Positions 34,650 to 50,890 of a DNA stretch of 64,000 nucleotides are shown one piece after another. Below the pieces are notes generated by a model. It was not told the DNA's origin and made no database searches. It was given only the letters and a program-made list of their open reading frames with translations. Every line of letters begins with the position of its first letter. The stretch's first letter is position 1. Where the stretch lies: positions 168,640,001 through 168,704,000 of the forward strand of contig JBNRSN020000006.1 in the NCBI GenBank assembly GCA_051313645.2, given 5' to 3'. The stretch is from Centroscyllium fabricii (taxonomy: Eukaryota). The position numbers were made by a program, and so were the translations under genes.

Positions 34650-36170
34650 TGTTTATTGGGATGTGGGCATCACTGGCATTGCCCATCCCTAATTGCCCTC
34701 GGTAAGGTGGTGGTGAGCTGCCTTCTTAAACTGCTGCAGTCCGTGTGGTGATGGCACTCCCACAGTGCTTTTAGGGAGGGAGTGCCAGGATTTTGACCCA
34801 GTGACGATGAAGGATCGGCGATATATTTCTGTCAGGATGGTGTGAGAGGGGAACTTGGAGGTGGTGTTTTTCCCATGCGCCTGCTAGGTGGAAGAGGTCG
34901 TAGGTTTGGGAGGTGCTGCAGAAGAAGCTCCTTGGCGAGTTGCTACAGTGCCTCTTGTAGATGGTACACACTGTAGTCACGGTACGCCAGTGGTGGAGGG
35001 AGTGCATGTTTAAGGTGGTGGATGGGGTGCCAATCAAGCGGGCTGCTTTGTCCTGGATGGTGTCAAGCTTCGAGTGTTGTTGGACCTGCACTCATCCAGG
35101 CAACTGGAGAACATTCCATCACACTCCCTACTTCACTCACGACTGTGCGGCTGTCCATGGCTTCAACACGATCAAGTTTGCGGACGACACCACGGTGGTT
35201 GGCCAGATCACCAACAACGATGAGTCAGCCTACAGGGATGAGATCCAGCGCCTTGTGGGATGGTGTGCCTACAACAACCTGGCACTGAACACCAAGAAAA
35301 CTAAGGAGATCATAGTGGACTTCCGGAGGACTGAAAGCAGAAGACACACCCCCATCTTCATCCAAGGGGCTGAGGTGGAAAGGGTGTCCAGCTTCAAGTT
35401 CCTTGGGGTCCACATCTCAGAAGACCTCTCCTGGTCACTAAACAACTACTCTCTGGTTAAGAAGGCCCAACAGCGCCTGTACTTCCTAAGGAAGCTGAAA
35501 AAAGCCAGGCTGTCATCCGGCATCCTCTCCAACTTCTACCGCTGCACAATCGAAAGCATACTGACAAGCTGCATCACAGTCTGGTATGGAAATTGCACCA
35601 TCTCGGACCGGAAGGCCCTGCAGCGGGTAGTCAAAACTGCCCAACGAATCACCGGTACCCAGCTACCGTCAATTGAAAGCATCTACCTCAAACGCTACCT
35701 ACGGAGGTCTCTGAACATTATTAAAGACCCCACACACCCCAGCCAGTCTGTTCGCCCCCCTGCCCTCCGGGAGACGCTACAGATCTATTCGCACCCGCAC
35801 GACTAGATTTAAGAACAGCTTCTTCCCCAGGGCTGTCAGCCTCCTGAACTCTTTAAAAAAAAAACCTCCGGTACCTGCACGCCTGATAATGTACTTTACT
35901 GTATGCAATTGTATGTAAATTATTTGCACTACTCTCGGGAGCGGCGAGTCTTCGTCTCGTTGTATTGTACTAGTACTCTGCAATGACAATAAAACTTGAA
36001 TTGAATTGAATTGTGCCTTGTAGATGGTGGAAAGGCTTTGGGGAGTCAGGAGGTGAGACACCACAGAATACCTAACCTCTGACCTGCTCTTGTTGCCACA
36101 GGATTTATGCAGCTGGTCCAGTTAAGTTTCTGGTCAATGGTGACTCCTGGGATGTTGATGGTGGGGATTA
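34650..36170 (-). mobile_element. LINE 3' fragment (same family as 3705-6478) interrupted by a Rex1 element
   Basis: Reverse complement of the 5840-6470 region (KLDTIQDKAARLIGTP). Confidence 0.8.
35130..36014 (+). mobile_element. Rex1/Babar LINE 3' fragment
   Basis: FTHDC, KFADDTTVVG.ITNNDESAYR, KKAQQRLYFLRKL, FYRCTIESILT; AATAAA followed by a (TTGAA)n tail. Confidence 0.88.
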
Positions 36171-37808: not shown

Positions 37809-39511
37809 GACCGACCTCTACCAAGCGGAAGCTGAACGCCAACTCTCCGACACCTCCTCCTACCTCCACCTGGACCATAACCCACTACTGAACATCAATC
37901 CACCGTTTCCAAGACTGTCACAGACTTATCTCCTCTGGAGATCTTCCCCACGACCACCAACCTCATAGTTCCCCAACCCCGCACAGCCCGCTTCTACCTC
38001 CTTCCTAAGATCCACAAACAAGACTGCTCTGGTAGACCCATCGTTTCAGTCTGTTCTTGCCCCACGGAACTTAGCTCTTCCTATCTCGACTCTATTTTTT
38101 CTTCCCTTGTCCAGTCTCTTCCCACCTATATCCGCGACTCTTCCGACGCCCTCCGTCACCAGTTTCTCGTCCCCAACCGCCTCCTTTTCACTATGGATGT
38201 ACAATCCCTCTACACCTCCATCCCCCACCAGGATGGCCTGAGGGCGCTCCGCTTCTTCCTTGAACAGAGGCCCGACCAGTCCCCATCCACCACCACCCTC
38301 CTCCGCCTGGCTGAACTTGTTCTCACATTGAACAACTTCTCCTTTGACTCCACTCATTTCCTCCAAATCAAAGGTGTTGCTATGAGTACCCGCATGGGTC
38401 CTAGCTATGGTTGTCTTTTCGTGAGATATGTGGAACACTTTGTTCCAGTCCTACTCGGGTCCCCTACCTCGCCTCTTTTTCCAGTACATTGATGACTGTA
38501 TCGGTGCCGTCTCCTGCTCTCGCCCTGAAATCGAAAATTTAATTCACTTTGCTTCCAATTTCCACCCTTCACTCGGTCCATCTCCGACTCTTCCCTTCCT
38601 CGACGTCTCCATCTCCATCTCCATCTCCATCTCCATCTCCATCTCCATCTCCATCTCCATCTCTGGGGATAGGTTGTTGACCAACATTCACTACAAGCCC
38701 ACTGACTCCCACAGCTACCTGGGCTACACTTCCACCCACCCCGCCACCTGTAAGGACTCCATTCCATTCTCCCAGTTCCTCCGTCTCCGCCGCATCTGCT
38801 CTGATGATCCCACCTTCCATACCAGTGCTTCCGACATGTCTTCCTTTTTCCTCAACCGAGGATTCCCCTCTACTGTGGTTGACACAGCCCCCTACCGTGT
38901 CCGTTCTACCTCTCGCACTTCTGCCCTCACCCCTGCCCCTCCCTCCCGGAACCACGATAGGGTTCCCCTTGTCCTCACCTATCACCCCACCAGCCTCCAC
39001 ATTCAACGGATCATCCTCCACCATTTCCGCCACCTCCAGCGTGATCCCACCACCAAATGCATCTTCCCATCACCTCCCCTTCCCGCATTCCGTAGGGACC
39101 GCTCCCTCCGCCACACCCTAGTCCACTCCTCTACCACCCCCAGCACACCTTCCCCTTCGCCCGGCACCTTCTCATGTAAGTGCAGGAGATGCAACACTTG
39201 CCCTTATGCCCTTCTCACTGTCCAGGGCCCCAAACACCCCTTCCAGGTGAAACAGCGATTTACGTGTACTTCCTGCAATTTAGTATACTGTATTCGCTGC
39301 TCACGATGTGGTCTCCTATACATTGGGGAGACCAAACGCAGATTGGGTGACCACTTTGCGGAACACCTCTGTTCAGTCCGTAAGGGGAACACCGAGCTCC
39401 CGGTGGCCTGTCACTTTAATTCTCCATTCCACTCCCATTCACACCTCACTGTCTGTGGCCGGTTGCATTGTTCCACGGAAACTCAGCGTAAACTCAAGGA
39501 ACAGCACCTCA
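37809..39511 (+). mobile_element. Penelope-like element (RT + GIY-YIG endonuclease), resuming at ~47697-47760
   Basis: LPKIHK, MDVQSLYTSIPH, GVAM, QYIDD, YKPTD, LVYCIRC..CGLLYIGET; the C-terminus (FHLGT.QP.GL...FNNF) lies after the SINE/ERV insertion. Confidence 0.9.
38605..38664 (+). repeat. (ATCTCC)n hexamer microsatellite inside the Penelope RT
   Basis: 8 perfect units 38611-38658 plus variant flanking units; encodes an in-frame (IS)n tract. Confidence 0.95.
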
Positions 39512-39761
39512 TAGAAACATAGAAGATAGGAGCAGGAGTAGGCCATTCAGCCATTCGAGCCTGCTCCGCCATTCAATGAGATCATGGCTGATCATCCAAA
39601 CCCAATACCCCACCCCTACCCTCTCCCCATAATCCCTATCGAGCCTGCACGGACACATATTCCCACCCTATCCCTGTAACCCCACATATTTAATCCCCCT
39701 AACACTAAGGGTCAATTTATCATGGCCAATCAACCTAATCCGCGCATCTTTGGACTGTGGG

Positions 39762-40774
39762 TGAGGAAATATACTTTGAACGGACACTCATTTTGGACAC
39801 TTGTCTATGAAACATGGCAACCATGTTTGGTTTCAGCCCGACTCTGAAGGGTTAAATAGTCTTGCTTTTAAATAAAAACTGTGCCTTTTCTATGTGAAAA
39901 GCAGTATTTGAAATACTGTGGAATGTTTAGAAAAGCAACCCAGTCAACCACGCATCTAGCCCCATACTTCTATCTTGATAAGATAACCTTTTGCTGTGAT
40001 CTCTTCAGGGCAGAGAGACATTACTTTGTGAAGGTATCATTTTACCCCTGAAAACTATAAGCCGTTTGTTTTTCTGAGAGAAATAATCAATCTTGTTGGG
40101 ATATAAAAACAAGTGGAGAATCTACTTTGCTTTTCTATGATAAGCAATAGATTAGTTCCAACCCTACAAAAATATCTCGTAAGCAATAGATCAGTTCAAA
40201 CCAATACCCAAAATATCTCAGTACTGATAACTGATAACCTGGTTGCACTAAAAGGTCAGTTAGAATATTTGAATTCTGCCTTTCTCGAAAGAAGCAGTAA
40301 ATTAGTTTGATACCAAAAACAACTTCTAAGGAACTTCTAAGACTTACATTTAAGCAGTAAAATATTTTCAGCAATAAATTAGTTTTGGTAATAAATTGGT
40401 ACCAAAACATCTCTCTGACCTATCTGATCTTTCTTTGATGTACGCATATGCGAGCCATTTGGAGGTTGTTATGTTTGATCGTGATATATTGAGAATTGAT
40501 CAGCCCATGTTTTTAATGCCCTTTTTACTGTATATAAGTCGCTCTGAAACCTAGCCAAGTCAGTGAATCTTCCGGAGGGAAGATTGACTCCTTGGGCTAA
40601 CATATGTGACCATTAGAAGTTGTGATCAGACTTGGTCGACTTTCTGTTGAGACCCTGGTATAATAAAGAAGGGTTTTTGTTTGTATCTAACTGTGTTGTG
40701 TTTTCTTACTGCTGACAAACTCGACAATTACCAGCGAGGGTACGGAAGACTCTATAGAAAGGGTCAGCTCGACA
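39762..40774 (+). repeat. ERV 5' LTR
   Basis: 1013 bp; TATATAAG at 40531-40538; AATAAA at 40662-40667; ~39-bp U3 direct repeat at 40141-40219; several GATAA motifs. Confidence 0.97.
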
Positions 40775-40777
40775 TTT

Positions 40778-40795
40778 TGGTGGCAGCGGTGGGAT
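40778..40795 (+). promoter_or_regulatory. Primer-binding site, tRNA-Leu
   Basis: TGGTGGCAGCGGTGGGAT(TC), 3 nt after the LTR; complementary to the 3' end of vertebrate tRNA-Leu(AAG/TAG) (...GAATCCCACCGCTGCCA-CCA, recalled). Confidence 0.88.
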
Positions 40796-41386
40796 TCCAA
40801 TCGAGGGTTTGATGTGAAGTGGTTGAACCAGTGACCCAGACGAAAGGACTGAGGGAATTGGCCAGCAAAGTGAGTATATTTAGTTAAATTGCCACTTTGT
40901 TTTCCCAACTGTCTTGAAACTTTGAGTCCATATCACCACTGAAACATCACCCCGAGACGGAATCCGAATCAGTCAGTTGTCAGAGTGATTAGAAAGAAAA
41001 CCCAACGAAAGCATCCTGTGGTAAGTAGTAAACCGTGAATCTCGTCAGAGTAGGTACTAAAAGGATACGGTAAAAAGACCGTGAGGAGACCCGTCTGGGC
41101 AGGTTAAAGGAGGAATTCTGAGTGTCGGAAAAATTTGAAGGTTTAAAGGCTGAACCGAGGAAGGAAAAGAATCCCGTCAGGGTGCACTCCCATAAAGAGA
41201 GAGAGTGTTTAAATTGGGGAAGAGCCCACATTCGGAAAAGAGACACTGTGATTGGAAATACAGGAATCCTCCAAGGTAGGAAAAGACTGATCAGCATTTA
41301 AAAAAAAAAAAAAAAGGTAAAACTGTTATTACATTAAATAAGGACCTCACTCGTAGGGGTGAGGAATTGACGGAGTATATAGACAT

Positions 41387-41539
41387 ATGTATTTAGTAAT
41401 TGTTTTTCTTATAATTATAATTATCCTGGTTCTTTTGTTGATTATCTGGTTGATTGAAAAACGTAATTATCACTGTGTCCCAATTGTCGGTAAAACCAAA
41501 CTTAAACCAGCTCAGGAACCCTTAACTACCAATGGGTAA
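41387..41539 (+). CDS. Putative 50-aa pre-gag membrane micro-ORF
   Basis: Manual translation MYLVIVFLIIIIILVLLLIIWLIEKRNYHCVPIVGKTKLKPAQEPLTTNG*; overlaps the gag ATG by 8 nt; shorter than any ORF in the supplied track. Confidence 0.45.
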   Translation: MYLVIVFLIIIIILVLLLIIWLIEKRNYHCVPIVGKTKLKPAQEPLTTNG

Positions 41540-42560
41540 TATTCAGGACACTTGCACGGACCCATCCCGACCCTTACAACAGTTATGTAACATACATCCT
41601 GAGAAAGGGGTGGACTTTAGACAATTGTCCGCAGGACTGAGTAAAAAATTAGGACTTGAAATCTGGCCAGAGGGAGGATCTAAGGATCTAGATGTTGTTC
41701 AACGAGCTTAAGAGTTATTATGGAGTAAATCAATAGGAACTGGAAAATATAGGAAACTAATCAAACATTCTCACTTGGTCCAAGCTATTACCACCTTTTA
41801 TTTATCTTTTATTTCTCCAAAAGTAACCCAATATACCTATATTGTGCTCGTTGAAATTAGACAACTGTCTGTGGAAAGGGTTAACTGCTCTGCAGATTTT
41901 TGGAAGGTGGAGCTAAACAATCATGGCACACATGAGCACGTGACTTCACGTATCAAACTGCTTTGGAAAAAGGTTACCATAGCAACCGCAAGGTTACAAC
42001 TTCTGGAAACTTCAATCTTTAGTCGTTCTTTTCAGTGTCTTTTTTTAAATACAAGATTAAACTTAAATTAGTTCAAAGTTTTTCAATTCTAGAGGCACAA
42101 TCTTATAATTTTACAAAATCCAAAACAAGACAAAGGAGCTAGCTTCTTTTAACTCAGAAGTGGGAGGAGCTAAAACAAACATACCAGAATCTTCAAGCTG
42201 AAAAAAAAAAGAAAAAACCAGATTAGAAAGAGAGAAAACCCTCAAAGACAGTTGGCAACACAATGCCTTAAAATTAGGAATTGCCCTAACCACCGGAGCC
42301 GGTGAGAAGTCAGCTGAAATATTAAAGAAGGAATGTGCAATAGCCAAATACCAGAAAAGTAGTGAAACTGAAAAAGAAAAAGTTCAAGAAGACTTACGTA
42401 AGTCAATGGTTGGCATGAGCCTTCAAGGGGATGATGAGAATTTTATGGGTGATTTACCAATAACGTATCAGTCCCTCTACCCACCTTTTCCCCTTCCCGC
42501 TCCTGTTCTTCTTGCTCCTGCCCCTCCTAATGACCCTGACCCCGTCTTAGTCCCACCATT
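41532..42560 (+). pseudogene. gag: ERV gag remnant (MA, coiled coil, Pro-rich region); disrupted and truncated
   Basis: MGN myristoylation start and WPEGGS matrix motif; in-frame TAA after ...VVQRA; frameshift at an A-run (~42201); SLYPPFPLPAP; CA and NC absent. Confidence 0.8.
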
Positions 42561-44086
42561 TAATAAGTGCCTGCAGATTAGCTGAAGACAAATCTGTTAA
42601 CATTTACACTGACTCTAGATACGCCTTCGGCGTGGTCCATGACTTTGGACAGTTATGGAAGAATAGAGGATTTCTCACCTCATCAGGAACACCTATTTCC
42701 AACCAATTACTAGTCTCCCAATTGTTAGAAGCCTTGCAGTTACCCCTTCAGATAGCAGTTATTAAATGTGCAGCACACACTTCTGGTAATACACCCGTAC
42801 AAATTGGTAATCGTAATGCCGACTTTGCAGCAAAGGCAGCGGCTAAGGGGCCAAAAATTGTGGTTCCCCAGATGATGATACAATCTAAAAGTTCACAGTT
42901 GAACAAGGAGGTCCCGAGAAAACCTATGCCAACCATCCAAGAGGTTCTTAACCTACAGGGGGACGCTCCTGATGCGCAAAGAAATGAATGGGCCTTGCAC
43001 GATTGTAAGCAAGAGCTATCTGGCCTCTGGACTACTCCAGTAGGTCAGACCTGTATGACTGATACTTTAGCTTTTTGGGTTCTCGATTGTATACATCTGG
43101 CAACTCATTGTGGTGCAAAACAGACTACGGATGCGTTGCTCCACACTTGGTGGCATCCACGTCTAAAACAGTTGGCTGATAAAATCAGCAACCGATGTCT
43201 CACCTGTGCTACATTTAATCCTGGCAAAGGAACCATTTGCCAGGCTGGGAAAACCCCACTACCTCAAGGTCCCTTTGAGACCTTGCAAATGGATTACATT
43301 GAGTTGCCCAGATGTCACTGTTATAAATATGTTCTTGTTATTGTTGATGTTTTCTCAAAATGGATTGAAGCCTATCCTACTGTTGATAACAAAGCCACCA
43401 CGGTTGTTAAAGTTCTTCTGCGAGAAATTATTCCCAGGTATGGCATACCCGCCAGACTCAGTTCAGACAATGGACCCCACTTTATCGGGGCGATCAATAA
43501 GGAAATGTGCCTCCAATTAGGCATTAATCAACAGCTCCATTGTGCCTATCGACCCCAAGCAGCAGGATTGGTTGAAAGAATGAACCAAACCTTAAAGACC
43601 AAGCTTGGCAAATTACAGGACCAAACAGGTTCTACCTGGCTTAAACTCCTACCTATTGCTCTTTTTCAAATCCGTGTTACCCCAGCTGGGGCCAGCAGAT
43701 TATCACCAGCAGAAATTGTTTACGGACGCCCACTCCGTACCCCTTGGACTGATGTCACCCCTGCTCCTGTACAATTTCACCACATGACTGAGGAAATGAC
43801 CACTTATGTTCTTTCTCTAACCAAAGCTCTCAAAATTGCTCACTCACAGGTTAGAGCTGCCTTCGGTGAATCAATCAATATCCCTGAGTCAACAGCAATC
43901 ACTCCAGGTTCATTTGTTCTGGTTAAAAACTTTGCACGTAAGCACTCGCTTGAACCTCGCTGGGAAGGTCCGTTCCAGGTACTACTAACTACCCCTACAG
44001 CTGCCAAAGTTGAAGGTCGCTCAGCATGGATCCACTTTCACCACTGTAAAGTGATTGGACAAGGCCAATCAAAGGGGGGAGAGTAA
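42560..44086 (+). CDS. pol: ERV pol remnant: C-terminal RNase H plus intact integrase
   Basis: VNIYTDSRYAFGVVHDFG, KCAAH, GNRNAD; HHCC finger; LQMDY / SSDNGPHF / GLVERMN DDE triad; WEGPFQVLLTTPTA. No protease or RT upstream. Confidence 0.93.
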   Translation, partial: LISACRLAEDKSVNIYTDSRYAFGVVHDFGQLWKNRGFLTSSGTPISNQLLVSQLLEALQLPLQIAVIKCAAHTSGNTPVQIGNRNADFAAKAAAKGPKIVVPQMMIQSKSSQLNKEVPRKPMPTIQEVLNLQGDAPDAQRNEWALHDCKQELSGLWTTPVGQTCMTDTLAFWVLDCIHLATHCGAKQTTDALLHTWWHPRLKQLADKISNRCLTCATFNPGKGTICQAGKTPLPQGPFETLQMDYIELPRCHCYKYVLVIVDVFSKWIEAYPTVDNKATTVVKVLLREIIPRYGIPARLSSDNGPHFIGAINKEMCLQLGINQQLHCAYRPQAAGLVERMNQTLKTKLGKLQDQTGSTWLKLLPIALFQIRVTPAGASRLSPAEIVYGRPLRTPWTDVTPAPVQFHHMTEEMTTYVLSLTKALKIAHSQVRAAFGESINIPESTAITPGSFVLVKNFARKHSLEPRWEGPFQVLLTTPTAAKVEGRSAWIHFHHCKVIGQGQSKGGE

Positions 44087-44316
44087 TAGTAAAAAGTGAT
44101 AGATTATGAAGTGAAAATGAACTGTTAAATGACCGATATCCGAATATTATGATTATATTTGTTTTAATTAATGTGTAGTTGGTATTTGTGATAATCATTA
44201 CTTACCTGACCCACCTCAAATAGCCCGCCCAGAAGAAAATGAAGAACTAGAAATGGTCCGACAATAGACCAAGCCACTGATACTGTTATTAAGTTTTGTA
44301 TTATAGATAAACCACG

Positions 44317-46422
44317 ATGAGCCTGACATACCTACTACTATGTGTTCTGATGCTGCTATTATCGGTGGAGATCAAAGGAAGAATAAAAAGATGCAAGCCC
44401 GGAAAGAAAATAATCCACCTATGTAAAGAAGACATAGCATCTTGTGAAGACCCCTCAGACGCTTTGGGATCGTGGAATGTCACCAAGAAAGATTTTTGCA
44501 ATGGACTGTTGACTCAATTCGACCAACAGGTCGAATTGAACGATAGACACTTCTGGACATTACCCTGTTACTTTTACAAATGCAAATATGATTTCACCTG
44601 TGAGGGGAATCGGAGCGAAGACAAGGTGTATAAGGAGCGGTTACTTGACGGGTTGTGTTGGAAAGAAGCTTTAGAAAGTCGGAACCTAGAGGTACAGGAA
44701 AGGGCTAGGCAGTCGAGAATTATTGATGCGACCAAGCTAAAACGCCGATCAGTGTCGAACTGGCACTCTTGGGATAACAACCAGTTCGTGCAGGCTTACC
44801 GAAAGATGTTTTATAATTCAACTGCATGTTACCCCTCCCTGTCTTTTTCTGATTTATTTACCCCAATCCCGCTCCCTGACCCCACCGAGTACTTGGTACA
44901 GGAGTTCGAAGAAAAGCCGCATACAAACGTTACCAAGGAGATAACCCTTAGAATGACTGCTACCTGTCTGAATGGCACGGGAAACAATGCCAATGTCAGC
45001 TATCCCTTTTGCTGGAATGGTACGGGTTATGGGTGTGCTGTAGTATGGGTACCAACCAACCTCACCTGTATTTATGATAGAACAAAGTATCAGTGCAACA
45101 AAGACGTCAAAACAGGAGAGGTTAACTGTCACCCGCACCAGCATTGTCTAAATCTTACTGGGGGAGGCCCTCAATTGGTGTGTGGGAATGCTAATCAGAC
45201 CCACATGACCATAGGTGAGCATAAGCTGACCATCATGCCTCGATTCGGTGATTCCAATAAAGGTGCAACCCCATTTGTACAACCTCTGTGTCCTGGATGG
45301 AACGGCATGGAGTTTGTCGTACCCGTCCCAGCTAAAGGCTTTAGGTACGGTGAGCATCTGTGGATAGCCCATCACCTGAAGACAGCCTTTACTAAGAAAT
45401 GTAACCAACCGGTAAAAAAAACTGGGGTAGTATACACTAAGAACGACTATTGGTTCTTTTATCAAGGGAAGGACGGTAAAGGAAAGGCTAGCAACTTTCT
45501 GGTTCCAAATGATCCTGATGGACCCACTCGGGTGGCTGTGGGAATGGTTGCACCACTAACAGTCCCGTGCCCCACTGAGTGGAAGAGACCTCCGCGGTAT
45601 TCTTGGTCAGATAGATTGAAGCGCGATGTTTACAAGGAATTTTGTGCCGACTGGGACGATCCTCAGCCCATTGGTGGCGGGGGACATGTGTTCGGTTACG
45701 CACTAGGATCGTTGTTTTCCTTGGGAGCATCCGCTGGGGCAGAAGCAGCTGAAAACCGAAACTATCTGTCTTGTGGGTTGACAATAGTAGGCAACGAAAC
45801 CCGGGATGCCATTGCGATAATCAGAAAAAGTTTAAGTGATCTTAGGGCTTTCACTTACCAAAACCGTTATGCCCTAGACTACCTCCTAGCCAGGGAAGGT
45901 GGAGTATGTGCCATAGTCCAAGGTACCTGCATTATGGGAGTTGAAGACAGATCAGAGGATCTGCTAAAGATTGAGGATAATCTAAGCACATGGTTGAGTG
46001 GAATGACGGAGGGAAAAGGATGGGGAGATTGGGGATTTGGTGGATGGTACGACTGGATTATTAATGTATTGATTTACCTTGGTATGATTGTATGTTGTAT
46101 TTTTGTTGGAATTGCTGTTTTAAAGTGTGTATTAAGCCGGATGATGAAAGCTGTGTCAGGCATTGGTAAAACCCCAAAAATGTTGTTATTACGTATAAAC
46201 TCGCCAAATTCACTGTATGTCCCCCTGAATCAACATGAAGTCACCAAATATGACAAACCCGAAGAAGAAGACGAAGATGTCTACAAGAACTTAACCAAGG
46301 AGGATAAACTAATCCGAGCAGCAGAAATCAAACAAGTGATACTGCTGGAGATCGAGGAAAGAGAAAACCGACGTTTAAATGACGAACTTCCCGGAGAGCC
46401 CACTTTTGGGGTGAAAGGGTAA
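44317..46422 (+). CDS. env: Intact 701-aa retroviral envelope glycoprotein with filovirus-GP2-like TM subunit
   Basis: Signal peptide; N-glycosylation sequons; RLKR furin site (aa 433-436); immunosuppressive-domain motif QNRYALDYLLAREGGVC; CX6C; Trp-rich membrane-proximal region; TM helix; ~95-aa tail. Acceptor TTTTGTATTATAG ends at 44306; start context CCACGATG. Confidence 0.95.
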   Translation: MSLTYLLLCVLMLLLSVEIKGRIKRCKPGKKIIHLCKEDIASCEDPSDALGSWNVTKKDFCNGLLTQFDQQVELNDRHFWTLPCYFYKCKYDFTCEGNRSEDKVYKERLLDGLCWKEALESRNLEVQERARQSRIIDATKLKRRSVSNWHSWDNNQFVQAYRKMFYNSTACYPSLSFSDLFTPIPLPDPTEYLVQEFEEKPHTNVTKEITLRMTATCLNGTGNNANVSYPFCWNGTGYGCAVVWVPTNLTCIYDRTKYQCNKDVKTGEVNCHPHQHCLNLTGGGPQLVCGNANQTHMTIGEHKLTIMPRFGDSNKGATPFVQPLCPGWNGMEFVVPVPAKGFRYGEHLWIAHHLKTAFTKKCNQPVKKTGVVYTKNDYWFFYQGKDGKGKASNFLVPNDPDGPTRVAVGMVAPLTVPCPTEWKRPPRYSWSDRLKRDVYKEFCADWDDPQPIGGGGHVFGYALGSLFSLGASAGAEAAENRNYLSCGLTIVGNETRDAIAIIRKSLSDLRAFTYQNRYALDYLLAREGGVCAIVQGTCIMGVEDRSEDLLKIEDNLSTWLSGMTEGKGWGDWGFGGWYDWIINVLIYLGMIVCCIFVGIAVLKCVLSRMMKAVSGIGKTPKMLLLRINSPNSLYVPLNQHEVTKYDKPEEEDEDVYKNLTKEDKLIRAAEIKQVILLEIEERENRRLNDELPGEPTFGVKG

Positions 46423-46518
46423 AAAATCTTTTGCCCACCTTGTAAGAAACACCCCAAAGGGACGAAGAAGAACAGATGAAGAAAAATTATGGACTAATGA
46501 TGTTGCCATGAAAATGAC

Positions 46519-46531
46519 AAAAGGGGGGAAA
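46519..46531 (+). promoter_or_regulatory. Polypurine tract
   Basis: AAAAGGGGGGAAA immediately before the 3' LTR. Confidence 0.9.
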
Positions 46532-47545
46532 TGAGGAAATATACTTTGAACGGACACTCATTTTGGACACTTGTCTATGAAACATGGCAACCATGTTTGG
46601 TTTCAGCCCGACTCTGAAGGGTTAAATAGTCTTGCTTTTAAATAAAAACTGTGCCTTTTCTATGTGAAAAGCAGTATTTGAAATACTGTGGAATGTTTAG
46701 AAAAGCAACCCAGTCAACCACGCATCTAGCCCCATACTTCTATCTTGATAAGATAACCTTTTGCTGTGATCTCTTCAGGGCAGAGAGACATTACTTTGTG
46801 AAGGTATCATTTTACCCCTGAAAACTATAAGCCGTTTGTTTTTCCTGAGAGAAATAATCAATCTTGTTGGGATATAAAAACAAGTGGAGAATCTACTTTG
46901 CTTTTCTATGATAAGCAATAGATTAGTTCCAACCCTACAAAAATATCTCGTAAGCAATAGATCAGTTCAAACCAATACCCAAAATATCTCAGTACTGATA
47001 ACTGATAACCTGGTTGCACTAAAAGGTCAGTTAGAATATTTGAATTCTGCCTTTCTCGAAAGAAGCAGTAAATTAGTTTGATACCAAAAACAACTTCTAA
47101 GGAACTTCTAAGACTTACATTTAAGCAGTAAAATATTTTCAGCAATAAATTAGTTTTGGTAATAAATTGGTACCAAAACATCTCTCTGACCTATCTGATC
47201 TTTCTTTGATGTACGCATATGCGAGCCATTTGGAGGTTGTTATGTTTGATCGTGATATATTGAGAATTGATCAGCCCATGTTTTTAATGCCCTTTTTACT
47301 GTATATAAGTCGCTCTGAAACCTAGCCAAGTCAGTGAATCTTCCGGAGGGAAGATTGACTCCTTGGGCTAACATATGTGACCATTAGAAGTTGTGATCAG
47401 ACTTGGTCGACTTTCTGTTGAGACCCTGGTATAATAAAGAAGGGTTTTTGTTTGTATCTAACTGTGTTGTGTTTTCTTACTGCTGACAAACTCGACAATT
47501 ACCAGCGAGGGTACGGAAGACTCTATAGAAAGGGTCAGCTCGACA
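46532..47545 (+). repeat. ERV 3' LTR
   Basis: 1014 bp; by eye identical to the 5' LTR except for one extra C (TTTTTCCTGAG vs TTTTTCTGAG). Confidence 0.97.
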
Positions 47546-47790
47546 TGGGAGGAAACCAAAGCACCCGGAGGAAACCCACGCAGACACGAGGAGAATGTGC
47601 AAACTCCACACAGATAGTACCCGAGGCTGGATTTGAACCCGGGTCTCCAGTGCTGTAAGGCAACAGTGCTAACCACTGTGCCACCGTGCCGCCCTGTGGC
47701 TTTCACTTAGGCACTCGACAGCCCTCTGGACTAAGCAGAGTTCAACAATTTTAGATCATAACCTCAGCCCCGGTCACATTTTTATATATA

Positions 47791-48514
47791 CAGGTTGAAC
47801 ACCATTATACCGTCACGGGCGGGGCTAGGCCTGCGCCAGTACAGCGAAAAAACCGGAAGAATGAAGCCTGCCAGCACCATTCAAAATGGACGCGCGCATG
47901 CGCACAACATTGGAAATGGCCGCCGGAAGTTTTGATCACCTGCAGGCCTGAGTGAAATGAGTGAAAGCCTGATCTTACAAACCCATCCGCAGGAGGATCA
48001 TTTTATATTAAAAAGCGGATTCACCGACAGCTCAAAATTCACACAAACTCGTTTCTCATTTCCTCGCCTAAAACATGTCACTGCCATCTGACAGCAACAA
48101 AGTCCCTTCTTCCTCACCTGTTGCAGGTAAAACTCGGCGACTCACTCACTTGTAACAGGTTTAATAAGATGAGGTACACGTGGTTATCTACCAATCTCTC
48201 ACACCAATTTTTAAAGCTTCGTCCAGCCCCATAGCGCTGGCTGGCTGCACTGTGCTGGCCCCACTCAGGAAAGGCCCCTCTCCGATAAATCGCCCTGACT
48301 GCCATGTGCATGCGCAAAATTGCCGCCGCGATCGATGCTTCCGGCGGCCATTTTGAATGATCTACGCATGCGTTCGGCGGTGCATGCGCAGATCATTCGC
48401 TGAAGCATCGATCGCGGAGGCCATTTTGCGCATGTGCAGGGCAGTCGGGGCGATTTATGCTGGACGACTGAAGTTGCCGGCTTTTCGGTTACCGGATTAA
48501 CGGTGCTCAACCTG
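47791..48514. mobile_element. Tigger/pogo-like MITE (copy 3)
   Basis: TA TSD; CAGGTTGAACACC ... GGTGCTCAACCTG termini. Confidence 0.8.
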
Positions 48515-49471
48515 TATATATTTTTTCTCTTTTTTCAATCAACACTTTTGTCTGGGCTTTTTGCTTCTCTCTGCCAGAGCCGTTCACACCTCCTAGAGCC
48601 ATCCTGTGTTCCTTGAATTTCTCGTAAAGGCCAATTCATTAAATATATTCAAGAAGGAGTTAGATATATTTCTTAAGGCTAAAGGGATATGGAGGGAAGG
48701 CAGGAACAGGGTACTGAATTTGGATGATCAGCCCTGATCTCATTGAATGGCGGAGCAGGCTCGAGGGGCCGAACGGCCTACTCCTGCTCCTATCTTCTAT
48801 GTAAGTAACATATGCTGTGGATAAAGGGGAACCGGTGGATGTACTGTACTTAGATTTCCAGAAGGCATTTGATAAGGTGCCACATCAAAGGTTATTGTGG
48901 AAAAAAGCTCATGGTGTAGGGGGTAGAAGATTGGCTAGCTAACAGGAAACAAAGCGTAGGCATAAATTTTTTGGTTGGCAAGATGTAACGAGTGGCGTGC
49001 CACAGGGATTACTGCTGCGGCCTCAACTTTTTACAATTGATATAAATGACTTGGATGAAGGGACCGAAGTTATGGTTGCTAAATTTGCTGATGACACAAA
49101 GATAGGTAGGAAAGTAAATTGTAAAGAGGACATAAGGAGGCTACAAAGGGATATAGATAGGTTAAGTGAGTGGGCAAAGATCTGGCAAATGGAGTATAAT
49201 GTAGGAAAATGCGAAACTGCCCATTTTGGCAGGAAGAATAAAAAAGCATATTATCTAAATGGAGAGAGATTGCAGAGCTCGGAGATGCAGAGGGATCTGG
49301 GTGTCCCAGTGCATGAATCACAAAAGGGTAGTATGCAGGTGCAGCAAGTAATTAGGAAAGCTAATAGAATGTCATCATTTATTGCGAGGGGAATTGAATA
49401 CAAAAGTAGGGAGGTTATGCTTCAGTTATACAGAGCATTGGTGAGACCACATCTGGAGTACTGTGTATAGT

Positions 49472-50890
49472 CAGGGTGCTACAAAAAAATAAAAATTCAC
49501 TTGCCCGTTCGGGCAAGGGGATTTCTAAAACATTTGCCTGAACACACATTTCATTTGCCCAATATTTTTAAAGAAATAAATAAATATTTTACATTTTTAT
49601 TAAAATGCTTCAATATAAAGCCATAGATTGCGATTGTGCCTTTAGTTGCATTGGCCCGGTTTCTACCCCTCTCTGCCAGGGTCTCTCTACTCTGAACATT
49701 CTTCCCTCATTTACCAAACATTCTGTGAAGCCTCCGCAGGCCACGGGCTCCCTCACTCTCTCCCCGCCTACCTTCATCCAGCAGCCGCTCCGGTTTTTTC
49801 TCTCCCCCTCAGCGGGTCGACGGCACTGACCCACTCTTGCCGGGCACCACCTAACCCGACTGCTGCCCCGTCCCGATTGACACGCCGCCGCCTCCTCCAA
49901 TCCCCACCGCGCCGCCCGGCCCTCCCAGCCAATCTGCACCCGCTTCCAGGACGGGAGCCACCTACCCGTGCCCTCGATCAAAAGTGGTTTTGTCGCGCCC
50001 TGGACGGTCCCTGGATTGGGTCTCTGGGTGCCAGGGTCCCTGGATTGGGTCTCTGGGTGCCAGGGTCCCTGGATTGGGTCTCTGGGTGCCAGGGTCCCTG
50101 GATTGGGTCTCTGGGTGCCAGGGTCCCTGGATTGGGTCTCTGGGTGCCAGGGTCCCTGGATTGGGTCTCTGGGTGCCAGGGTCCCTGGATTGGGTCTCTG
50201 GGTGCCAGGGTCTCTGGGTGCCAGGGTCCCTGGATGCCAGGGTCCCTGGATGCCAGGGTCCCTGGATGCCAGGGTCCCTGGATGCCAGGGTCCCTGGATT
50301 CGGCAGACTGGCAACCTGTAACCCTAATGGGAGATGAATCAGAGCTCTGTCAAACCACTGACAAGCACTACCCCCGGGACACACACTGGAAAAGCTGCCG
50401 CGCCCCTTGCACTGCGGCCACGTGACACAGGCTGCCCCGCCAATCAACCGCCTAGAGGGCAGGGCCTGGGCGTGGCTCCGTAAGTTCAAAGGTTCCCCTC
50501 TGCCGCGGACGCAGAGAAGTGAGTTGGGGACCGCCGCCTCACTTCACTGCTGGTTCGAGCTGCTGCGAGACGCTGAGGTGTTGCGGCGCCAAGTGGCGGC
50601 CGGTCGGCCAGAGCAAGCTGTGATTGGCCGAGTACGGACAGGGGGCGGGGCGCAGCACGAGAAAACTGCTGGGCTGTGATTGGCCGAGCTCGGGCGGGGC
50701 AGAGATGAAAACCAATCGGCCGATGCGCGCCCACCCCACCCCCCGCTAATCTGCACCCGCCTCCAGGGCGGGATCCACCCACCCGTTCCCATGGCCCCGA
50801 TCACTTGCCCGGTCGGGCAAGTAAGATTTTCATTTACTTGCCCGGCGGTGCATTTTACTTGCCCCGGGCAAGCGGTTTTATCGCGCCCGG
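49472..50890. mobile_element. Non-autonomous hAT-like element with a 5-bp TSD
   Basis: ATAGT|CAGGGTGCTACAAAA ... TTTTATCGCGCCCGG|ATAGT; subterminal TTGCCC/GGGCAA palindromes; the CR1 is restored on removal. Confidence 0.8.
50006..50299. repeat. Minisatellite: ~7 x 29 bp then ~5 x 16 bp
   Basis: (GGGTCCCTGGATTGGGTCTCTGGGTGCCA)n followed by (GGGTCCCTGGATGCCA)n. Confidence 0.95.

Follow-up and report, generated by a model that had tools for sequence, protein, structure and literature searches.

An intact envelope gene in a young endogenous retrovirus of Centroscyllium fabricii and its alignment with lizard Env-Mab2 and Tapajos virus glycoprotein

The window analysed here, a 64,000-nucleotide stretch of the Centroscyllium fabricii genome (assembly GCA_051313645.2, contig JBNRSN020000006.1), contains an endogenous retrovirus (ERV) at 39762-47545 on the forward strand. 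An intact envelope gene (env) is part of this provirus, in which the canonical features, namely long terminal repeats (LTRs), primer binding site, gag-pol-env, polypurine tract and target-site duplication, are all present (Table 1). The provirus is very young: its 5′ and 3′ LTRs differ by 0 substitutions and 1 one-base indel, and this youth explains why the env frame is open. Comparison with sister copies by blastn revealed a large internal deletion, with gag running at about 42559 into the last part of RNase H. Because the two are joined directly, 3′ gag, protease and reverse transcriptase (RT) are missing, and the copy is therefore unable to replicate alone. The pol remaining in the window is closest to gamma- and epsilonretroviruses, with MLVIN_C and RNase H matches to murine leukemia virus (MLV) and xenotropic MLV-related virus (XMRV), and RT from a related lineage with the same Env type scored 486 bits against MLV/XMRV versus 193 bits against foamy virus. 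By these sequence criteria the pol is class I, gamma/epsilon-like. We consider it probable that the locus is a young class I ERV carrying a class I fusion Env of a shark and ray lineage, very likely the filovirus-related lineage published in 2024.

The translated env confirmed the layout of the transmembrane subunit (TM) proposed by the original prediction. The furin site RLKR (amino acids (aa) 433-436, 45613-45624) is followed by DVYKEF and then by C443 (45643) and C486 (45772), which flank 42 residues with a hydropathy maximum of 1.28 at aa 461-471. The N493-E-T sequon lies at 45793, C531 at 45907 and C538 at 45928; residue 539 is isoleucine, and the motif is therefore CX6C, not CX6CC. The immunosuppressive domain (ISD) precedes this motif, as in canonical gamma-type Env, and the two cysteines flanking an internal hydrophobic loop match, at the sequence level, a feature of avian gamma-type Env. 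Two other features of canonical gamma-type Env, a CXXC in the surface subunit (SU) and an N-terminal fusion peptide, were not found in this protein, whose TM start is polar. In an alignment of 15 proteins (13 family members, lizard Env-Mab2 and the Tapajos virus glycoprotein (GP)), C486, C531 and C538 were present in all 15 and C443 in 14, and the third cysteine of CX6CC was absent from all 15. Since the third cysteine and a CXXC are both absent and the numbers of cysteines are even (8 in the leader, 12 in SU and 4 in the TM ectodomain), SU and TM are predicted to lack a connecting disulfide.

Judged by alignment, the nearest named whole-protein relatives of the shark Env are Mabuya Env-Mab2 (ATY46612) and the GP of Tapajos virus, a snake filovirus (YP_010798909). 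A search of 1.84 billion representative proteins gave 416 matches, of which the best 150 were listed and 30 of those looked up; Tapajos GP was the best named viral match, followed by Marburg virus GP, and it aligned over aa 375-581 of the shark Env, spanning the furin site, with 87 bits. A 15-sequence profile of the shark family aligned with Tapajos plus Mab2 over 367 columns, from the SU start to the membrane anchor (E 1.4e-29, score 220.5), compared with a score of 133.3 against alpha-like Envs; the avian and alpha-like comparison proteins are unnamed or unchecked database entries picked by motif. When the shark profile was restricted to SU, the match to Tapajos plus Mab2 (probability 95%, E 2.6e-8) was the sole significant one, the controls being mammalian filoviruses (E 0.033), alpha-like Envs (0.056), gamma-type Envs (0.35) and an unnamed loop group (0.04). 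Env-Mab2 and Tapajos GP also resemble the shark protein in their cysteine-bounded loop, the absent third cysteine and a cysteine near each end of SU; because C171 and C418 are conserved across the family and in both Mab2 and Tapajos, we would guess at a C171-C418 bond within SU. They differ from it in sequence (21-23% identity), in having CX7C instead of CX6C and short tails, in lacking the leader domain described below, and, for Tapajos, in a loop of 37 residues.

A bolder reading, which we rate slightly below even odds, is that the envelopes of the shark and ray ERVs, Env-Mab2 and Tapajos GP belong together over their whole length, SU as well as TM, as a single lineage marked by an internal fusion loop and by the lack of a disulfide between SU and TM. 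If so, the published placement of fish Envs beside Ebola and Marburg viruses would need revision, and what Tapajos virus captured would have been an entire env and not merely a TM ectodomain. The shark family, recently active and equipped with an additional cleavable leader, would then offer a retroviral model, still intact, of the kind of envelope that filoviruses acquired. Several points weigh against our main explanation of the locus and the nearness to Mab2 and Tapajos that it includes. SU aligned weakly with Tapajos alone (E 0.0095 and 0.006), the signal coming mostly through Mab2. An ordinary gamma-type profile outscored Tapajos plus Mab2 (235.8 over 155 TM and tail columns versus 220.5), which tells against taking profile scores for kinship; more generally, the closeness rests on alignment scores, which are not phylogeny. 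The loop is poorly modelled, with a predicted local distance difference test score (pLDDT) below 50 in the alignment-based structure prediction, and the tree in the main text of PMC11521997 groups the fish sequences with Ebola and Marburg viruses rather than with Tapajos.

In that tree (Nino Barreat and Katzourakis 2024) the sister group of the ERV ectodomains from cartilaginous fish is the GP2 of ebola-, cueva-, marburg- and dianloviruses (posterior 0.83), and Tapajos falls with lizard elements (posterior 1). It is accordingly conceivable, although we regard it as the less probable reading, that the TM is specifically sister to the GP2 of Ebola, Marburg, Lloviu and Mengla viruses, and that the SU likeness to Mab2 and Tapajos is an ancestral state lost by a fast-evolving GP1. 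Filovirus GP2 chains did come top in a PDB search (E 3e-11, 46.7 bits), above the TMs of MLV (27 bits) and avian sarcoma and leukosis virus (ASLV; 24 bits), but the ranking is tilted towards GP2, since the retroviral TM chains are short constructs beginning no earlier than the second cysteine. The shark Env and GP2 have N-x-N-x-L-x-C-G-L and LR-x-F stretches in common, and SU gave a weak, non-significant match to GP1 149-171, falling on the same strand as in the other controls. Against these observations, the whole TM gives level BLAST scores (Zaire 67.0, alpha-like Env 67.8 and gamma-type shark Env 65.9 bits), and among the best 150 of 416 matches Marburg GP comes 24th and Mengla GP 33rd, amid ordinary ERV Envs and under Tapajos at 19th. 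Mammalian filoviruses keep CX6CC (C511, C556, N563, C601, C608 and C609 are invariant in seven of their GPs), whereas the third cysteine is absent from the shark family, Tapajos and Mab2. The loop interior does not align to the Ebola loop, BLAST and HHalign alignments both beginning near aa 478, and the shark profile matched the seven mammalian filovirus GPs over 126 columns, in TM only (score 150.3).

With Ebola and Marburg viruses, then, only the TM core aligns. Pfam Ebola-like_HR1-HR2 reached 20.1 bits, under its cut-off of 27, and the GP1 family Filo_glycop had no match in the Env. A cysteine-bounded loop past the furin site, a sequon in the first heptad repeat (HR1) and the HR1-ISD core are all present in the shark Env in GP2-like form. 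The filovirus proteins differ in their CX6CC with a GP1-GP2 disulfide and in an unrelated loop interior, the shark Env has no mucin-like region, and the GP1-SU comparison, as given above, was not significant. The gap-free alignment of C486-C538 with Zaire GP C556-C608 was confirmed at 22/54 identities, counted by hand. Across this 54-residue stretch, 23-29 identities are reached by 43 proteins from outside the family among the 150 listed matches; the 45-residue cysteine spacing recurs in alpha-like Envs (C274-C319) and Tapajos GP (C339-C384); and the HR1 sequon is described in PMC9967133 as common among non-mammalian gamma-type Envs. Because these features are shared with many non-mammalian Envs and TM scores tie, no special closeness to Ebola virus is shown, and we rejected the identity, the spacing and the sequon as signs of it. 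Of the filovirus relation originally predicted, kinship with filovirus glycoproteins stands, in line with the PMC11521997 tree, and the particular affinity claimed from these features does not; in the BLAST and profile comparison that had been proposed, GP2 led the PDB ranking, and over the whole TM it drew level with alpha-like and gamma-type Envs.

Such ties would also suit a divergent gamma- or alpha-type ERV Env with no special filovirus tie, its likeness consisting of ancestral features of non-mammalian Envs. This we consider unlikely: none of the 43 higher-identity matches carries a cysteine at the C486 position, SU-level homology extends to the Tapajos plus Mab2 profile and to 0 of 4 controls, and trees in PMC11521997 split a clade of fish, filovirus and reptarenavirus sequences from other retroviral TMs with a posterior of 0.89. 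A host-domesticated env or an integrated filovirus glycoprotein gene is largely refuted and most improbable, for although the frame is open despite broken gag and pol and certain relatives are annotated as syncytin-like host genes, env lies between integrase and the 3′ LTR, the near-identical LTRs make youth a sufficient account of the open frame, dozens of copies are dispersed in the genome, and Filo_glycop is not matched.

Avian gamma-type (alpharetrovirus/ASLV) Env, as described in PMC3758190, shares with the shark Env a cysteine-flanked internal fusion peptide, the sequon and the 45-residue spacing; it differs in its CX6CC with a covalent SU-TM link, its class II pol and an SU that cannot be aligned to that of the shark. 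Chen et al. (10.1101/2021.11.23.469661) describe anamniote Envs with CXnC subtypes and new fusion peptides, including cartilaginous-fish members with class I pol. Their set may include the shark family; the new Envs are said there to lack N-terminal similarity to the alpharetroviral type. Two unnamed database proteins (P0078 and P0100) make up a third group of Envs, again with a loop between cysteines and without the third cysteine; the shark profile aligns with their TM and the end of their SU at a score of 153.2. An alpha-like Env (P0137) has, judged by eye, an apparent immunoglobulin domain ahead of SU.

In ASLV and filovirus GP2, furin frees TM, two paired cysteines close off the internal fusion loop, and HR1 and the second heptad repeat (HR2) form a six-helix bundle. 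By analogy, furin would cleave the shark Env at RLKR and release TM, the C443-C486 pair would close the fusion loop, which would enter the target membrane once triggered, and HR1 and HR2 would zip into a six-helix bundle. From cysteine content, SU and TM are predicted to associate non-covalently. The shark Env would thus represent a natural internal-loop retroviral fusogen, seemingly without an SU-TM disulfide. Entry by Ebola/Marburg-type GP1,2 depends on cathepsin, NPC1 and low pH. For the shark protein we can only guess, by the same analogy, at endosomal or low-pH triggering, and guess likewise that KLKRR is where the leader domain is removed. Structure prediction from the single sequence was unusable (pLDDT 34), and the alignment-based prediction (pLDDT 54) gave a post-fusion-like hairpin. 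Foldseek with this model found no PDB match at E 0.001, and none of the structure searches listed a match to the SU fold. Turtle herpesvirus F-env, ERV Envs and Zaire GP headed the BFVD matches, and in VIA-align the hairpin tied, within 1 Z unit, with the cores of reptarenavirus, syncytin-2, Mason-Pfizer monkey virus and Ebola virus.

The leader domain had no Pfam family match, and in a protein atlas it matched ERV Env clusters only (0.89-0.91, with low shared-feature counts). It is kept in some related lineages, distant ones among them, of the same genome and of other sharks, and is missing from others as well as from Mab2 and Tapajos. Two related lineages (L016 and L017) have near-identical leaders and differing SU cores, which suggests, on sequence grounds, env recombination among related lineages. 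Some copies carry an 8-residue tandem duplication immediately before the furin site (45595-45618).

A scan of the 7.2 Gb genome, in which 150 of 3372 candidate TM matches were scored, placed 56 of the 150 at 96-100% identity, the window copy counted among them; 31 of these near-identical matches sit within open frames 703-715 codons long. The remaining 94 are related lineages at 54-67% identity. The four TM cysteines and Ile539 are kept in five further copies. The recent activity that had been predicted is borne out by these near-identical copies and by the LTRs, as is the class I pol by the RNase_H, rve, MLVIN_C and MLV/XMRV matches. The predicted cartilaginous-fish lineage likewise held: in the protein search, all eight named family members among the 30 looked up come from sharks or rays, and the best-scoring of the 150 listed matches align from the first cysteine on. 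Family hosts are Heterodontus, Mobula, Pristiophorus, Hemiscyllium, Rhincodon and Chiloscyllium, together with one Scyliorhinus protein, and by this sampling the Env lineage is widespread in sharks and rays. The Scyliorhinus protein carries the annotation of an LDLRAD3 isoform, but its final part is an Env of the shark family with the loop region missing; it is either a gene-model artefact or a real host-virus chimeric transcript. A search of viral contigs found no relative. No RNA run was listed among the sequencing runs carrying the element, and contigs cannot reveal expression. In one run, summed contig depth was 312 over env (44338-46088) and about 2700 over integrase (42560-44320), roughly one eighth; contig depth is no copy number, and this is a weak hint that many copies of the pol family may be without env.

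The shark Env very likely belongs to the lineage published in PMC11521997, an identity we infer, so the filovirus kinship of shark and ray Envs has very likely already been described; prior description of the lineage was among the outcomes that the original prediction named as refuting it. The table of that paper lists 14 cartilaginous-fish loci, with Tapajos GP the best viral match for 5 of them, and two Mab2-Tapajos segments are listed, one within SU. Host group, retroviral context and best viral matches to filovirus GPs including Tapajos agree with our element; ours differs in being whole, intact and in a young multi-copy family. The terms fusion loop, fusion peptide, cysteine, CX6C, GP1 and surface do not occur in its main text. 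In the literature covered, which left most subscription journals outside its scope, we found no account, for shark Envs, of the cysteine-bounded loop, the CX6C motif without its third cysteine or the extra leader domain, nor, with the large supplementary archives of PMC11521997 also outside it, of SU homology between shark Envs and Env-Mab2 or Tapajos GP. The addition made here is an intact, young, full-length example with a predicted anatomy that points towards Mab2 and Tapajos. Where the filovirus glycoprotein came from is not settled, and the published answer, as given in the main text, is a TM-ectodomain tree with moderate support; full-length intact Envs make the capture model testable through the fusion loop and the surface subunit.

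Table 1. Coordinates of the provirus and its Env domains in the window
Feature	Position	Strand	Basis or remark
Left target-site duplication, 4 bp	39758..39761	+	identical 4 bases at 47546-47549
5′ LTR, TG...CA, 1013 bp	39762..40774	+	comparison with 3′ LTR
Primer binding site	40778..40796	+	complements tRNA-Leu 3′ end
5′ part of gag, broken	41532..42559	+	blastn against sister copies
pol remnant: RNase H end and integrase	42560..44086	+	Pfam RNase_H, rve, MLVIN_C; MLV/XMRV RNase H matches
env, open, 701 codons	44317..46422	+	Pfam TLV_coat 23.4 bits (cut-off 22.5)
Signal peptide, predicted	44317..44376	+	hydropathy
Cysteine-rich leader domain, aa 26-139, 8 Cys	44392..44733	+	bounded by RIKR (22-25) and KLKRR (140-144)
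Surface subunit core, aa 145-436, 12 Cys, no CXXC	44749..45624	+	ends at furin site RLKR
C443-C486 loop, hydrophobic core near aa 456-471, predicted internal fusion loop	45643..45774	+	hydropathy, conserved cysteines
HR1 with N493 sequon, immunosuppressive domain, CX6C (C531-C538)	45775..45930	+	alignments
Membrane anchor	46051..46131	+	hydropathy up to 3.2
Cytoplasmic tail, 96 aa, acidic	46132..46419	+	translation
Polypurine tract	46519..46531	+	adjoins 3′ LTR
3′ LTR, 1014 bp	46532..47545	+	comparison with 5′ LTR

The pattern complementary to the primer binding site occurs 197 times in the same genome; of three loci scanned, one was a tRNA-Leu(TAG), one an unclear tRNA and one no tRNA. Within gag, 433 bases (41766-42198) have no counterpart in one sister copy, and contigs of three sequencing runs skip the same stretch. 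An Rfam scan of 38500-48500 gave no match. The sequence around the insertion site (39700-39761 and 47546-47690) resembles what we take to be a shark short interspersed element. Elsewhere in the window, fragments of long interspersed elements lie at 34961-35806, 37881-39522 and 48943-49470, and a tandem repeat array with a 29-bp unit spans 49977-50246.
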